Shown piece after piece: positions 12,893 through 37,593 of a stretch of DNA of 64,000 nt (position 1 is its first letter; the number at the start of each line of letters is the position of its first letter). Source of the stretch: a virus; IMG/VR virus record IMGVR_UViG_3300021964_000013; one strand, 5' to 3'. The position numbers and the translations under genes were made by a program. The notes below the pieces were generated by a model. That model ran no database searches, was not told the origin of the DNA, and worked only from the letters and a program-made list of their open reading frames with translations.

Positions 12893-13381
12893 ATGGTACT
12901 TTTTGATAATTTAAAATTTAGAATATATTGTGACATGGATGGGGTCCTCGTGGATTTCGACAAAGGTTACAGTCAACTACCCGGTGCGTTAGAGCTTGAT
13001 GGTACTTACCAAAGTACTGAAGAGTTTTGGGCACCAATTAATAAGGCGGGAAAGGACTTTTGGGAAAGTTTGGATTGGATGCCCGATGGTAAACGATTGT
13101 GGGATTATATCAATGAATATTACCCTGTAATTCTCTCATCACCTTCCCGACGTGGTTACGGATCGAGAGAAGGTAAGAAGAATTGGGTTGAGAAGGAGTT
13201 ACCGGGAGTACCACTTCTTTTAGAGTACTCTTTTAATAAGAGGAAACACGCATCACCAAACCATATATTGATTGATGATAGAGAAAGTAACATCGAACAA
13301 TGGGTTGAGAGTGGAGGTATTGGAATACTTCACACCTCGGCAAAAGAAACTATAATAGAACTTAATAAGTTAGGGTTATGA
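12893..13381 (+). CDS. 5'(3')-deoxyribonucleotidase (HAD family)
   Basis: DMDGVL, ILSSP and ILIDD motifs. Confidence 0.85.
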   Translation: MVLFDNLKFRIYCDMDGVLVDFDKGYSQLPGALELDGTYQSTEEFWAPINKAGKDFWESLDWMPDGKRLWDYINEYYPVILSSPSRRGYGSREGKKNWVEKELPGVPLLLEYSFNKRKHASPNHILIDDRESNIEQWVESGGIGILHTSAKETIIELNKLGL

Positions 13382-22680: not shown

Positions 22681-23640
22681 ATGATAAGAACAGCAGAATG
22701 TGTATCTCCTATGCATCCCGATAAGATGTGTGATAGGATCTCAGATACACTATTAGATTTACACTTACAACAAGATGAGAACTCAAGATGTGCCATTGAA
22801 ACATGTGGTGGTATTGGACAAGTGTTCATTACGGGTGAGGTAACATCTAATGCATTGGTAAATGATGCAATGATTAAGAAGGTGGTGAAAGACATCACTA
22901 AGGATCCCGATATTCAGGTGACCATAAATTTGAATCAACAATCCCCTGAGATTGCGCAAGGTGTTGATATAGGAGGTGCTGGTGATCAAGGTATTATGAT
23001 TGGGTTTGCGTGTGAAGATAACGAGGAGTACCTTCCACAAGAATATTATTTGGCACGAGAACTCAATAAACACATCTATAGAACATATCCCTTCGATGGA
23101 AAGACCCAAATCACCTTAAATGGAAGTAAGGTTAGGGTGGTTTGTTCATTCCAAAACGCACCAAAAGAGATGTTGGAAGGTATGGTCACAGGATGGTTTA
23201 GGAGATATCCTGAGTACATCATAGAATCTCTGCATTGTAACCCCGCAGGTGATTGGAACATTGGTGGGTTTACTGCGGATGCAGGACTAACAGGTAGAAA
23301 ACTTGCGGTCGATAACTATGGACCAAGAGTTCCGATTGGCGGTGGCGCCTTTAGTGGTAAAGATTCGACTAAGGTTGATAGATCCGCGGCGTACATGGCA
23401 AGAAAGATTGCTGTTGACTACTGTAAACTATATGGTGGTGACACCTATGTTACTTTGGCATATGCTATTGGATACGACCAACCACTACAGGCAACTGTTG
23501 TGTGTGGGGATCACGTCATGGAGATAGAGGGTTACGACCTATCTCCTCAAGGTATCATAAAATTCCTTGACTTAAAGAAACCGATCTTCGGAAAGACCGC
23601 TGAATTTGGTCACATGGGATGTGGTTTTAATTGGGAATAG
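22681..23640 (+). CDS. metK: S-adenosylmethionine synthetase
   Basis: HPDK, GAGDQG, DAGLTGRK and GGGAFSGKD..KVDRS motifs. Confidence 0.95.
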   Translation: MIRTAECVSPMHPDKMCDRISDTLLDLHLQQDENSRCAIETCGGIGQVFITGEVTSNALVNDAMIKKVVKDITKDPDIQVTINLNQQSPEIAQGVDIGGAGDQGIMIGFACEDNEEYLPQEYYLARELNKHIYRTYPFDGKTQITLNGSKVRVVCSFQNAPKEMLEGMVTGWFRRYPEYIIESLHCNPAGDWNIGGFTADAGLTGRKLAVDNYGPRVPIGGGAFSGKDSTKVDRSAAYMARKIAVDYCKLYGGDTYVTLAYAIGYDQPLQATVVCGDHVMEIEGYDLSPQGIIKFLDLKKPIFGKTAEFGHMGCGFNWE

Positions 23641-27229: not shown

Positions 27230-28090
27230 TTGAGACAACTCAAAATTCAACAGCAGATTACGGTCCGAGAATCGAAATCTGTTACTTCCTATTTCAACGA
27301 TATCAACAAAGAGCCAATGGTTGAGCCAGACGAAGAGTCTGATTTAGCTATTAAAATTCAGCAAGGCGATAAAGCAGCTCTTCAAAGACTTATAAAAGCA
27401 AACCTCAGATTCGTAGTATCAGTTGCAAAGCAATACCAAAACAAAGGCTTAAATCTTGAAGACTTGATTAGTGAGGGTAATATAGGTTTAGTTAAAGCAG
27501 CAGAACGTTTTGATCACACTAAAGGCTTTAAGTTTATATCTTACGCAGTGTGGTGGATTAGACAATCTATAATGCACGCGCTTGGTGAATATAGTAGGCA
27601 AATACGTCTACCACAAAATCAAATAGGTCTGCTACGTAAAATCAATAGTGAAGTTATAGAGTTTATGCAACTCTATGATAGAGAGCCAACACCACACGAG
27701 TTGTCAGAAAAAATAGGCGAACCTATAGATAAAATCGAGTTTCTACTAAACAGTAATTTCAACGCTTCTAGCCTAGATGCTCCTTTAAGTAATGGTAGTA
27801 GTGATGATTTTAGTATGCACAATATACTTTCGTCAACCATAGAAACAGATAAGGAAGTGATGAGGCAGTCTTTATCCACTGATATCAACAAGATATTAGA
27901 CGAGTTACCTGAAAGACAGGCTTATATACTGAAGCGTACGTTTGGCATAGGTTGTGCTCACGCAGAAACTCTAGATGAGATAGGCGAAGAGCTAGGCATA
28001 AGCAGAGAACGTGTTCGTCAGATCAAAGACACAACAATTAGAAAAATAAAAGGCAAAGGTTGGGATAAAATTTTAATAGAATACTTATGA
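27230..28090 (+). CDS. RNA polymerase sigma factor, Bacteroidota RpoD/SigA-like (TTG start)
   Basis: MRQLKI, ANLRFVVSVAKQYQ, DLISEGNIGL..AAERFD.TKGFKFISYAVWWIRQSI, SRERVRQI. Confidence 0.95.
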   Translation: MRQLKIQQQITVRESKSVTSYFNDINKEPMVEPDEESDLAIKIQQGDKAALQRLIKANLRFVVSVAKQYQNKGLNLEDLISEGNIGLVKAAERFDHTKGFKFISYAVWWIRQSIMHALGEYSRQIRLPQNQIGLLRKINSEVIEFMQLYDREPTPHELSEKIGEPIDKIEFLLNSNFNASSLDAPLSNGSSDDFSMHNILSSTIETDKEVMRQSLSTDINKILDELPERQAYILKRTFGIGCAHAETLDEIGEELGISRERVRQIKDTTIRKIKGKGWDKILIEYL

Positions 28091-29215: not shown

Positions 29216-29825
29216 TTCCAGATTGGATAGGCTTAATAGAATGAAGGTCGTATATCGTAAAGACCCTCACTCAGATAAACCAACAGAGGTTTACTGGTGG
29301 GGTAAGTTTTATGAATATGGTACACACCAATGCTTCGATCTATTTCGTAGTAAGGCTAAAATAACTACGTATAAGTCTTTAAAATGGCACAGCATCGTAC
29401 TTCGTTATCTTAATCAAGAGATGTCTGAAGATAATTTTAAGGATGTTTTATTTTACGTAGGTAATCCTTTAAATGATTTCATTACATTTGAGATAAGCGA
29501 GAATATTGTAAATGAGTTAATTACGGACTTACGTGGTTACGATTTAAGAATAGCACCAAAAAACAAATCAAGGAAAATTATATTTAATGACGGTGTCCCG
29601 CTTAGCATTAGTGAAAAGCTGAAAATCGTAGGTAGCTTAATCGGTAGAGGTAAACGCTTTACTGAAGAAGACATCTACGAGTCGATGCTATACATCCATG
29701 CTAACGGCGACAAAATTACGGTGAGAAAGATCGCGAGTACACTTGGTTGCTCAGATAGGACGATACATCGTAATATGAGTGATCAATTGAAAAATGAAAA
29801 AGATTTACTCAATGCGTCATTATGA
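29208..29825 (+). CDS. C-terminal HTH DNA-binding protein
   Basis: 'KITVRKIASTLGCSDRTIHRN'; start reassigned to ATG 29208. Confidence 0.7.
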   Translation: MSHSRLDRLNRMKVVYRKDPHSDKPTEVYWWGKFYEYGTHQCFDLFRSKAKITTYKSLKWHSIVLRYLNQEMSEDNFKDVLFYVGNPLNDFITFEISENIVNELITDLRGYDLRIAPKNKSRKIIFNDGVPLSISEKLKIVGSLIGRGKRFTEEDIYESMLYIHANGDKITVRKIASTLGCSDRTIHRNMSDQLKNEKDLLNASL

Positions 29826-30580
29826 AAAAATACAACCCGCGTACTTACTCCTCTTATAAAGAGAGTGTAAACGCAGCTAAAGCTAGGATAAGAAAAGAAA
29901 CACTAGCTAACTTAAACAGAGATGAAGTAATCACGATGTACCTACCTCTAGTCGAAAATCTCGCCAGAAAGTTCTCAACAAGCCAGCAAGCAAGCGGCGT
30001 GATGAGTCTAAATGATATGATACAAGAAGGTTCTATCGGCCTTATAATGTCATATGATACTATCAAGTGGGACAAGATTAAAGAAAGCCCAGATCCAGAA
30101 CGTACAATAAGATCTTTCTTTTCCAAAAGAATAAAAGGCGCGATTCGCAGAGCGATAGATAAAAACAGAGGTGATATACGTATACCAGAACATAAGCTAA
30201 ACGAGATTCGTAAAGACAACGGAAAAGACAAAAAGCTTATGCAGATGTTCTTTAACAGTATATTCTTGTCTATAGATGAGAAAGTAGAAAACGATGAAGA
30301 ATATGCACATCAAGTAATTGACACATCTAAGCCGTATACAATAAATAAGATAAACGACTACCTCATGGATCTCATGTCTAGAGTATTAGAAGAAAGAGAG
30401 TATGAGGTAATAAGGTTGTCTTACGGTTTAGACTGCGATAAGCATTCTGCAAAACAAATAGCTGAGATCGTCGGCATTAACGTTGATACCGCGCACGTAC
30501 GTGTGTCTCAGATTAAACGTAACGCACTGGAAAAATTAATGCAACGCGTAGATCGAAACATGTTATTGGAGTTCATGTAA
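29822..30580 (+). CDS. Divergent sigma-70 family factor
   Basis: YLPLVENLARKF, DMIQEG.IGL, IRIPEH and a region-4 'RVSQIK..AL.KL'. Confidence 0.85.
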   Translation: MKKYNPRTYSSYKESVNAAKARIRKETLANLNRDEVITMYLPLVENLARKFSTSQQASGVMSLNDMIQEGSIGLIMSYDTIKWDKIKESPDPERTIRSFFSKRIKGAIRRAIDKNRGDIRIPEHKLNEIRKDNGKDKKLMQMFFNSIFLSIDEKVENDEEYAHQVIDTSKPYTINKINDYLMDLMSRVLEEREYEVIRLSYGLDCDKHSAKQIAEIVGINVDTAHVRVSQIKRNALEKLMQRVDRNMLLEFM

Positions 30581-34727: not shown

Positions 34728-35368
34728 AAGACAGATTTTGGGACGCTAACGAAGCGTTTGAGTACTACTTGGATAAAATACGGCAGTTTGGCTGGAAAAC
34801 AGAGGTTGGTACTAAAAAAATAAGCAACGTTGGGTTTTATATAACCAATCCAGCTAAAAACGAAATAAAAACTCCAGAACGTAAATGGAGTAAAGAGTAT
34901 GCGGAAGCCGAATGGCAATGGTACTTATCCGGTGATCGTCAAGTATCTAAACTAGGCGAGATATATGGTAAAGTTCCAGTAATATGGCAAAAAATGGCCA
35001 ATAGCGTTGGTGATGTCAACTCGAATTATGGTTGGCAATGGCAACGCGAGCATCAAATTGATTATGTTGTATCAGAGCTTAAAGCAAACCCTAATAGTAG
35101 AAGAGCGGCTATAAGTATATACGATGGTAAAGAGTGGCCAACTTACAGAAAAGATACTCCCTGTACCTTTGCTATACACTTTTCCATTGCGTCGGGCCGC
35201 TTAAACATGACCGTTATGATGCGTTCTAATGATCTCTGGTTTGGTTTCTGTAACGATCAGTACTGTTTTTCAGAACTACAAAAATTAATAGCAGAGAGAC
35301 TGAGTATACCAATAGGTGAATACTACCACTTTGTATGCGACTTACACTTATATGAACAACACTTCTAA
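34724..35368 (+). CDS. thyA: Thymidylate synthase (short phage type)
   Basis: YG, SRRA, PC, MRSND..FG..ND and LHLY motifs. Confidence 0.85.
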   Translation: MKDRFWDANEAFEYYLDKIRQFGWKTEVGTKKISNVGFYITNPAKNEIKTPERKWSKEYAEAEWQWYLSGDRQVSKLGEIYGKVPVIWQKMANSVGDVNSNYGWQWQREHQIDYVVSELKANPNSRRAAISIYDGKEWPTYRKDTPCTFAIHFSIASGRLNMTVMMRSNDLWFGFCNDQYCFSELQKLIAERLSIPIGEYYHFVCDLHLYEQHF

Positions 35369-35372
35369 AATT

Positions 35373-36140
35373 ATGTATTATATTTATCATATACCTGGTA
35401 AAAAGATTGGCGTGGCGCGTAATCTTAAATACAGGGTAACGCTAATGCAGGGTTACAAGACCGGTGAATACGAAGTTCTTGATCAAAGTGAAGATATTGA
35501 TTACATATCTGACCGCGAGATAGAACTTCAAAAGGCTTATGGCTATAAGGTCGATCCTGTGCTTTATAAAAATCTTTTTAAATCATCTAAAACAACAAAA
35601 GCCATGATCACATTCAGTAGTCAAACAACGACGTTCCCATTCCCAAAGAAAGAACTAAGAACCAGTTTGGTACCATATATTGGACATATGTGGGAAACAG
35701 AAGACGGTTTATTAGAAATAAACAGTAAGACAATTGACTGGATCGCTAAAAACGCGTGTAAGTCGATGTTTAACGAGGATAAAAGTTATATTTATAATAA
35801 AGCATTTGCTGAGTACTTGCAAGAGCAAGAAAACGAAGGCATCGATATTTTTGATAACATACGCCAGTGGGCAAGCGAAAGAGGCTTGTACGACAAAGGT
35901 GATGTAAAGACGCAGTACGTAAAGTTAATGGAAGAAGCTGGCGAGCTCGCGCAATCTATTATCAAGAGTGATGATGCTGAGTTTATCGATGCTATTGGTG
36001 ACATTGTTGTGGTCTTAACTAATCTAGCTCACTTAGGTGGTGTCAAGATCGAAGACTGTATTCAATCTGCTTACAATGAGATTAGCAACAGAAAGGGCGC
36101 TATGGTTAATGGTTCATTCGTAAAACAAGAATCATTATGA
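35373..36140 (+). CDS. MazG-like NTP pyrophosphohydrolase with N-terminal GIY-YIG-like region
   Basis: KLMEEAGELA...DAIGD..VVL; N-terminal YYIYHI.GKKIG. Confidence 0.75.
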   Translation: MYYIYHIPGKKIGVARNLKYRVTLMQGYKTGEYEVLDQSEDIDYISDREIELQKAYGYKVDPVLYKNLFKSSKTTKAMITFSSQTTTFPFPKKELRTSLVPYIGHMWETEDGLLEINSKTIDWIAKNACKSMFNEDKSYIYNKAFAEYLQEQENEGIDIFDNIRQWASERGLYDKGDVKTQYVKLMEEAGELAQSIIKSDDAEFIDAIGDIVVVLTNLAHLGGVKIEDCIQSAYNEISNRKGAMVNGSFVKQESL

Positions 36141-36379
36141 GACAGAAGATAATTAACTTCCGCGATCCCGTTGTCGAAAAAGTAGTCGACAAGTTTGTTG
36201 ATAGATCAGATGTAGGTTACGTTAAATACGGTAAGACGCTAGATGAAGAGAGACGTACAAAAGTCAAAGACTTAGCAGATTACTTGAACGATGTCCAGGA
36301 AGAACTAATGGATGCCATATTGTATATTCAAGCTGCTAGAGATGAAATTAAAGACCTAGCAAATGAAAAAGAAGAGTAG
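36137..36379 (+). CDS. Hypothetical protein (G..KYG.TLD...QEELMDA.LY family)
   Basis: Motif pattern, possibly an all-alpha NTP-PPase fold. Confidence 0.6.
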   Translation: MRQKIINFRDPVVEKVVDKFVDRSDVGYVKYGKTLDEERRTKVKDLADYLNDVQEELMDAILYIQAARDEIKDLANEKEE

Positions 36380-36848
36380 TAAAAGAGGTCCTGTAAGAGC
36401 TAAAAAAGTAGAGTACGACGGTATAAAGTTTCAAAGTGGCCTAGAAAAGTACATGTACATGGCTCTTAAAAAAGCAGATATATCATGCCGTTATGAGATC
36501 GAAAGCTTTACTCTTATAGATGGATTTAATTTTAAAAACAAATCATACGAAAGACAGTCAAATGGTAAGGGAGAATATACTGAGAGAGGCAATAAAAAGA
36601 TACGTCCAATCACCTACACACCGGACTTCACAGGTCCAGGATTCATCATCGAGTGTAAAGGAAGAGCAAACGAATCATTCCCAATTAGATGGAAATTGTT
36701 CAAGCGATACGTCGCTTTAAAAATGCCAGGAGTTACATTGTATAAACCTCAAAATCAAAAAGAATGCGACAAAACGGTAGAACTGATACTCATAAAAAGA
36801 AGAGTTCAGCAGACCATGCTTCTAAAGGATACAAGACAAGACAAATAG
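36363..36848 (+). CDS. Endonuclease (T7 endonuclease I/DUF1064-like)
   Basis: FxSxLE, YTPDF and IIECKG motifs. Confidence 0.8.
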   Translation: MKKKSSKRGPVRAKKVEYDGIKFQSGLEKYMYMALKKADISCRYEIESFTLIDGFNFKNKSYERQSNGKGEYTERGNKKIRPITYTPDFTGPGFIIECKGRANESFPIRWKLFKRYVALKMPGVTLYKPQNQKECDKTVELILIKRRVQQTMLLKDTRQDK

Positions 36849-36933: not shown

Positions 36934-37119
36934 GTGAAAGAAACATATTGGGAGATATCCTTTGGTACTTACCCAGGTATATTACTGGGATTTAGAACAT
37001 ATCAAGAAGAGGATGAAGTTAAATGGGATGGTGATCCTGCTGTAATGACAGAGCGCAACCACGTTTTATACATTCCTTTCGTAGATATGTGTATTAGAAT
37101 AATAACCCTTCAAAAGTAA
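36934..37119 (+). CDS. Hypothetical protein
   Basis: ORF track. Confidence 0.55.
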   Translation: MKETYWEISFGTYPGILLGFRTYQEEDEVKWDGDPAVMTERNHVLYIPFVDMCIRIITLQK

Positions 37120-37123
37120 AAAA

Positions 37124-37225
37124 ATGACAGACGATTTCGAAGACTTCGTAGACATGCTTGAACAAGCAGAACAACCAACTTGCAGTTTCGACAACCCTGA
37201 AGATTGCGAAGCTTGTGGGTCATAG
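37124..37225 (+). CDS. 33-aa peptide resembling the redox C-terminal tail of ribonucleotide reductase (not in ORF track)
   Basis: MTDDFEDFVDMLEQAEQPTCSFDNPEDCEACGS. Confidence 0.65.
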   Translation: MTDDFEDFVDMLEQAEQPTCSFDNPEDCEACGS

Positions 37226-37314: not shown

Positions 37315-37485
37315 ATGAGAGATAATAGAGTTGATAGTATACTACATGAGTTAGCTATACTACACAGTGGTCTCGGTACTGATTCAACCGAGAGAGAGAA
37401 AGAAACGGTTTTAAATAAAGAAAACTACCTAAGAAAAAAGATAGCAGAAATAGATAAAGATTTAGAAGAAAGACTTTTTCCTTAA
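37315..37485 (+). CDS. Small hypothetical protein
   Basis: Start reassigned to ATG 37315 (MRDNRVDSILHELA...). Confidence 0.55.
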   Translation: MRDNRVDSILHELAILHSGLGTDSTEREKETVLNKENYLRKKIAEIDKDLEERLFP

Positions 37486-37549: not shown

Positions 37550-37593
37550 AAAAGTGGTATGTGCAGATTTTGCATGTACCACTTTTTATTTTT
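37550..37593. terminator. Hairpin/terminator where the early (+) and late (-) arms converge
   Basis: AAAAGTGGTA...TACCACTTTT stem followed by a T-tract. Confidence 0.6.

Follow-up and report, generated by a model that had tools for sequence, protein, structure and literature searches.

A 33-aa phage gene encodes a micro-protein whose end is, on profile and pattern comparison, homologous to the C-terminal redox tail of NrdA, the large subunit of class Ia ribonucleotide reductase (RNR) of the eukaryote/Bacteroidota type. The ORF codes for protein, is conserved and is confined to phages. That an RNR-less phage should carry a free-standing copy of this tail had been proposed from the letters of the DNA, and the proposal is now supported by homology, by conservation across a whole family, by restriction to phages and by complete relatives that are free of RNR. 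We regard the micro-protein gene as a phage auxiliary gene of a new type, widespread in uncultured phages.

The gene lies in a 64,000-nucleotide stretch of viral DNA, which as a whole is referred to here as the window. It runs from an ATG at 37124 to a TAG at 37223-37225 and specifies an acidic product of 33 codons whose C-terminus is Cys-x7-Cys-x2-Cys-Gly-Ser, followed directly by the stop. A degenerate DNA pattern covering the last ten residues and the stop matched the window once and none of 100 shuffles. The start codon is 4 nt past the stop of a 61-aa ORF, and the gene is the last but one of a + strand operon that also encodes a primase-helicase, a thymidylate-synthase homologue (PF00303), a MazG fusion and a DUF1064 protein, so that its position near the end of a nucleotide-metabolism cluster, as given by the sequence-only reading, stands. 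The operon is closed by a terminator. The features of the region are as follows.

36363-36848, + strand: DUF1064 gene (PF06356), the anchor for 80 syntenic loci.
36934-37119, + strand: 61-aa ORF upstream of the micro-protein gene, a synteny marker by virtue of homologous small ORFs in relatives.
37124-37225, + strand, stop included: 33-aa tail-mimic micro-protein gene, supported by ORF reading, phmmer and viral contigs.
37127-37165, + strand: predicted amphipathic helix, residues 2-14, with the pattern F-x-x-[FW]-[VIL]-x-x-L, from AlphaFold2 and column conservation.
37178-37222, + strand: copy of the NrdA C-terminal redox tail, residues 19-33, from hhalign and identity to the NrdA end at locus L136.
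37316-37485, + strand: 56-aa gene downstream of the micro-protein gene, a frequent neighbour recognised by HMM.
37550-37586, no strand assigned: terminator with a 17-bp stem, between converging + and - strand gene blocks.

The shared stop/start junction of a minigene array does not flank the micro-protein gene, and megablast of the region against GenBank phages gave no match. Elsewhere in the window (all + strand), the MazG domain occupies residues 203-260 of a 274-aa protein (35316-36140) whose N-terminal 190 residues have no Pfam match and are conserved at loci L008 and L082, and an S-adenosylmethionine synthetase and two sigma-70-family factors are encoded at 22681-23640, 27230-28090 and 29822-30580. 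Within the window, tblastn with NrdA matched the tail alone and Pfam searches of the large ORFs yielded no RNR, in agreement with the earlier statement that none is present; as the window is part of a larger genome, this holds for the window only. No ORF with a thioredoxin or glutaredoxin motif was found in the window either.

The relationship of the peptide to NrdA was supported by several comparisons. When the peptide family was aligned by hhalign to an alignment of 40 NrdA C-termini, the two profiles matched with a probability of 98.1% (E 8.7e-14) over 28 columns at 61% identity, both reaching the last residue. In a scan of one genome per prokaryote species, 116 of 119 ORFs retrieved by a DNA pattern for the tail were the 3' ends of NrdA genes of ~790-850 aa, which came from Bacteroidota and Bdellovibrionota. 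The NrdA end at L136 is identical to the peptide in 14 of the last 15 residues, two huge-phage NrdA genes share the ending, and alignments to PDB entries revealed the same motif at the end of human RRM1 (3hnc) and, with small changes, of yeast Rnr1 (1zyz). In common with these NrdA/R1 tails, the peptide has a CxxC within its last six residues, at a true C-terminus, preceded by the Cys-x7 spacing and by Asn-Pro-acidic-acidic. Taken together, the pattern scan, the RRM1 and Rnr1 ends and the profile comparison confirm both the original observation, an unannotated acidic ORF with an NrdA-like tail, and its background, that NrdA proteins of the eukaryote/Bacteroidota type end in a similar tail. By contrast, the remainder of the peptide is unlike NrdA: with 33 aa it has no Pfam match (PF02867 included), no barrel and nothing of the ~800-aa enzyme, but possesses a helix and a Glu-Gln-Pro hinge of its own, and tblastn matches to NrdA were confined to the last 21 residues. 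The NrdA tail is the only detectable homology of the peptide, in which the final 15-20 residues of the enzyme are copied, the CxxC pair and the upstream Cys among them.

The tail itself varies among both the phage peptides and the cellular enzymes. Most family members have Asn after the first Cys, where NrdA has Ser. In Flavobacteriaceae-like NrdA proteins (Lutimonas, Lutibacter, Polaribacter, Flavobacterium) the first tail Cys is absent and the CxxC-Gly-Ser is kept, as at the 3' ends of L092, L101, L112, L114, L116, L126, L141, L164 and others; the three-Cys NrdA tail seen in the peptide occurs in Cytophagales, Schleiferiaceae, Cryomorphaceae, Crocinitomicaceae and Bdellovibrionota. This distribution of three-Cys and two-Cys enzymes may hint at the hosts of the peptide-bearing phages. 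A minority of the family (L051, L053, L057, L082, L347, L349-L351 and L356-L358) has Cys-x6-Cys-x2-Cys spacing. No x6-spaced NrdA end with Gly-Ser was present in 121 sampled Bacteroidota genomes, and the Pseudomonas aeruginosa NrdA (PDB 5im3) has x6 spacing. In three bacterial MAG or draft contigs (L098, L104 and L127), an NrdA-type tail follows an in-frame stop, in ORFs of 14, 18 and 138 aa; these short ORFs lack the helix of the peptide and are likely nrdA frameshifts or assembly errors.

The distribution of the gene is consistent with its being a functional family. A phmmer search of 1.84 billion representatives returned 28 clusters (50% identity) at E < 1e-3, comprising proteins of 33-85 aa, all of whose matches extended to their own C-terminus; no full-length NrdA aligned to the peptide. 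In IMG/VR, a peptide-specific DNA pattern identified at least 119 viral contigs, and each of the 119 matches listed is a free-standing ORF of ~32-75 aa ending with the tail, so that the stand-alone phage homologues suggested by the earlier reading do exist. The corresponding ESM Atlas clusters, with 191, 87 and 71 members, are all annotated 'hypothetical' and lack Pfam assignments. A search with a 40-aa homologue produced no candidates for longer relatives, and the peptide pattern was present in 0 of 401 sampled Bacteroidota genomes.

Among the matches listed, 111 distinct coding versions were distinguished, in which synonymous change is saturated while the residues are kept. The median pairwise dN/dS was 0.17, at saturated dS, a value biased downward because a regular expression selected the sequence set; conservation nevertheless extends to columns outside that selection, and four codons occur at each of the invariant Pro and Gly columns. 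These comparisons indicate that the micro-protein family is under purifying selection. The strong conservation, in an ORF that is intact in all 119 contigs listed and in unrelated contexts that include crAss-like phages, is difficult to reconcile with the idea that the gene is a non-functional remnant of a deleted nrdA.

The family spans unrelated phage backbones. In the lineage of the window, the primase-helicase at L208 is 90% identical to that of the window; a second DUF1064 phage clade carries the peptide at L051, L053, L057 and L082; a lineage of ~31 kb has it in 34 of ~38 close relatives, ~2 kb upstream of a helicase; and it is also present on crAss-like contigs. The neighbours of the peptide vary by lineage; among them are lysis enzymes, a helicase, a glycosyltransferase and proteins without assignment. 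An HMM built from 17 downstream neighbours detected 69 loci, among them the window (E 4e-22) and some loci that lack the peptide, and the 56-60-aa downstream family it describes is found at L082 (5860-6069) and L208 (4637-4840) as well as in two DUF1064 records, G020 and G023, that have neither RNR nor peptide. As peptide-less loci carry it too, the 56-aa gene was discarded as an obligate partner.

The variability of these surroundings, with lysis genes and a helicase as neighbours and not nucleotide enzymes, is one argument for a role away from RNR, in which the peptide would serve as a handle on host thioredoxin, recruiting it for another phage process or titrating it, or would be a small factor that works through its thiols or binds metal; its three conserved Cys and acidic composition would suit such a role. 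However, the similarity to NrdA includes positions other than Cys (Asn-Pro-acidic-acidic and the Gly-Ser end; E 9e-14), in bacterial genomes the motif almost always marks an NrdA end (the 116 of 119 above), and no partner gene is conserved beside the peptide, so we regard a role outside RNR as unlikely. The layout of a helix followed by a Cys-rich end also resembles the leader and maturase-modified core of a RiPP-type precursor. Across the 119 loci listed, neighbour clustering with Pfam searches of the top clusters revealed no recurring thioredoxin, glutaredoxin, radical-SAM enzyme or other maturase, and no cyclase, protease or transporter recurred near the peptide, while the supposed core is the NrdA tail and not a known RiPP core. 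A RiPP precursor is thus very improbable, and the peptide was not assigned to that class.

The presence of the peptide was then compared with that of phage-encoded RNR. The RNR large subunit (PF02867) was found in 0 of 47 peptide-bearing phage records, of which 15 are at least 90% complete, some with terminal repeats, and neither the small subunit (PF00268) nor glutaredoxin (PF00462) was found in the 26 larger ones (0/26 in each case). By contrast, 24 of 26 peptide-less records of the DUF1064 lineage carry PF02867. In the 31-kb lineage PF02867 was present in 0 of 18 records, with or without the peptide, so that the anticorrelation between peptide and RNR is informative in one lineage only. Gene order within that DUF1064 lineage defines the relationship further. 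At L008, the DUF1064 gene is followed by two small ORFs, nrdB, nrdA and converging lysis genes, whereas in the window, at L082 and at L208 it is followed by the same two small ORFs, the peptide, the 56-aa gene and converging genes; homologues of the 61-aa ORF stand directly upstream of the peptide at L082 and upstream of nrdB at L008. The peptide therefore occupies the slot of nrdB-nrdA in the DUF1064 lineage.

This shared slot is what could make the peptide appear to be debris of nrdA. The NrdA proteins of those relatives, however, have another, shorter tail with a CxxC at their end (the NrdB proteins have an acidic Phe/Trp motif there), and because of this difference the peptide is not a leftover of that nrdA. 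In addition, tblastn with full NrdA proteins found no further NrdA-like sequence in the window, and the conserved helix cannot be placed in NrdA. Together with the intact ORFs and the evidence for selection, these data led us to reject the remnant hypothesis, which is the least credible of the explanations considered; the possibility, left open from sequence alone, that relatives would expose a deleted nrdA was not borne out, though nrdB-nrdA do share the slot there.

Since the genome continues past the window, the peptide might alternatively be a tail split off from an RNR that lacks one and is encoded in another part of the same genome. At the family level such a split gene is excluded by complete or near-complete peptide-bearing genomes that contain neither the large nor the small RNR subunit, and the nearest relative records, G036 (41 kb) and G001 (36 kb), also have no RNR, although G001 does not span the locus; for this genome, too, we consider it highly improbable. 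A phage-encoded reductant as partner of the peptide was likewise rejected: no glutaredoxin was present, and weak thioredoxin-fold matches proved to be signal-peptide proteins in the lysis module. One such lysis-module protein, of ~117 aa, occurs in several peptide-bearing phages (L082, 7779-8132, - strand; G036, 13002-13127; and six further records); the L082 version carries a signal peptide, matches the thioredoxin fold weakly and contains no cysteine, and the protein is probably not redox-active. As the peptide-bearing records lack a phage RNR, the target of the peptide must be a host component.

The sequence-only reading had recognised the tail and missed the conserved N-terminal helix, which makes up half of the protein. 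AlphaFold2, run with the family alignment, predicted a helix at residues 2-14 (pLDDT 86-88) followed by a flexible tail (pLDDT 56-75); one helix and a flexible tail do not constitute a thioredoxin or glutaredoxin, whose fold takes at least 75 aa and has its CxxC at the N-terminus of a helix, and there was no match to PF00085 or PF00462. The family consensus consists of an acidic start with F-x-x-[FW]-[VIL]-x-[ED]-L, a near-invariant Glu-Gln-Pro hinge and the tail, and the helix is as conserved as the tail. It could not be placed in register in NrdA, and we infer that it may be a docking element. Within it, Asp-Asp-Phe-Glu-Asp-Phe-Val (37130-37150 of the window) resembles the Glu-Asp-Phe-Glu-Asp-Ile-Trp with which the relatives' NrdB proteins end (L008, 5907-6875, and 36 other loci). 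The helix could mimic an R2 tail, or the likeness could be due to chance in acidic sequence. A chimera of NrdB tail and NrdA tail was considered and set aside, as the likeness to the relatives' NrdB ends, though real, covers only a short segment, and its register differs from that of host NrdB ends. Herpesvirus and mammalian R2 C-terminal peptides block R1-R2 assembly, and they share a short acidic-aromatic segment with the peptide; the motif of the micro-protein, however, is internal, helical and without a free carboxylate, and its spacing is unlike that of host NrdB ends.

A role for such a peptide is suggested by the way in which class Ia RNR is regenerated, its reduced tail swinging into the active site. 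At each turnover of R1 the active-site cysteines form a disulfide, which is reduced by the C-terminal Cys pair of a second R1 polypeptide; thioredoxin or glutaredoxin reduces the R1 tail but cannot itself reach the active site, electron delivery is rate-limiting, and a second reduction route raises activity ~threefold (PMC4078304). The phage peptide would enter at this re-reduction step of the host enzyme. Its helix would dock it on NrdA or on the reductant, making up for the low local concentration of a free peptide, host thioredoxin would charge its dithiol, and the charged peptide would act in trans to re-reduce the active site of host NrdA, so that a second shuttle could make host RNR faster in phages that have none of their own. 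Tentatively, and with somewhat less than even confidence, we thus prefer the idea that the micro-protein may act as an extra electron shuttle for host RNR over the idea that it is a decoy, on the indirect argument that it never accompanies a phage RNR and takes the place of one. It is conceivable, with about the same reserve, that a spare tail replaces a 3-kb nrdAB operon by a 100-bp gene and raises dNDP output.

The main alternative is the decoy, in which the peptide would compete with the NrdA tail for thioredoxin or glutaredoxin, or for the entrance of the active site, perhaps through a mixed disulfide, and so throttle host RNR, as Sml1 does in yeast; this might, for example, halt host replication while the phage uses salvaged host DNA. 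The homology and conservation data apply equally to this explanation, and a docking helix joined to a substrate-like tail is a classic competitive design. There are also two precedents. Sml1 (with Spd1, Hug1 and Dif1) belongs to a group of small eukaryotic proteins that bind R1, and its action has been proposed to block tail-mediated regeneration (Zhang et al. 2007, as cited in PMC6382339). These are cellular regulators or inhibitors, however, and not copies of the tail; they have no sequence relation to the peptide, which matches no Pfam family and so is not a member of theirs. In Neurospora, the C-terminal incompatibility domain of UN-24 is a C-terminal piece of R1 that acts in trans on another R1; it forms a complex with Rnr1 and is harmful (PMC3618301), although it is a 135-aa, artificially expressed piece of a full-length gene and not a gene that stands alone in nature. 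Against the decoy, an inhibitor of host RNR would be expected alongside a phage RNR with another kind of tail, and peptide and phage RNR co-occurred in 0 of the 47 records; RNR-less phages gain nothing obvious from reduced dNDP synthesis; and a peptide that stands in the nrdB-nrdA slot is more readily understood as a replacement for phage RNR than as an inhibitor. On balance, inhibition by a decoy seems possible but doubtful.

The extra-shuttle reading itself faces difficulties. Because the tail of NrdA is tethered, the peptide, being free, could contribute only by tight docking or by great abundance, and docking is suggested by the conserved helix alone. In yeast, an R1 C-terminal fragment supplied in trans (the UN-24 domain) did harm and was found in a complex with Rnr1 (PMC3618301). 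Furthermore, the tail has Asn for Ser in most members, and the x6 variants have no counterpart among the NrdA ends of the 121 Bacteroidota genomes, which may also speak against a direct stand-in for the host tail.

Whichever way the peptide acts, the phages that bear it probably influence how the host is supplied with DNA building blocks. The availability of DNA precursors is controlled by RNR, and phages often ensure it by encoding complete RNR operons; T4 NrdC thioredoxin and NrdH-type redoxins are phage-encoded reductants of RNR. As the peptide would be, these systems are devoted to dNDP supply, and in relatives nrdB-nrdA hold the very slot of the peptide, but there the phage supplies the enzyme or its reductant, whereas here it would supply only the shuttle between them. 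In full-text searches of the literature, neither an RNR tail encoded as a gene of its own nor a phage factor acting at the RNR re-reduction step was found described. If the shuttle reading is true, the gene would represent a new class of auxiliary metabolic gene, supplying a moving part of a host enzyme instead of the enzyme, and a far cheaper route to taking over dNDP supply than an RNR operon. It would also be a clear case of phage short-motif mimicry of a host enzyme and would offer, as a naturally occurring peptide, a probe of the re-reduction step in class Ia RNR of the eukaryote type, a step that is poorly understood in an enzyme that is a drug target. In either direction of effect, the family raises the question of whether the RNR tail can work, or be blocked, in trans.
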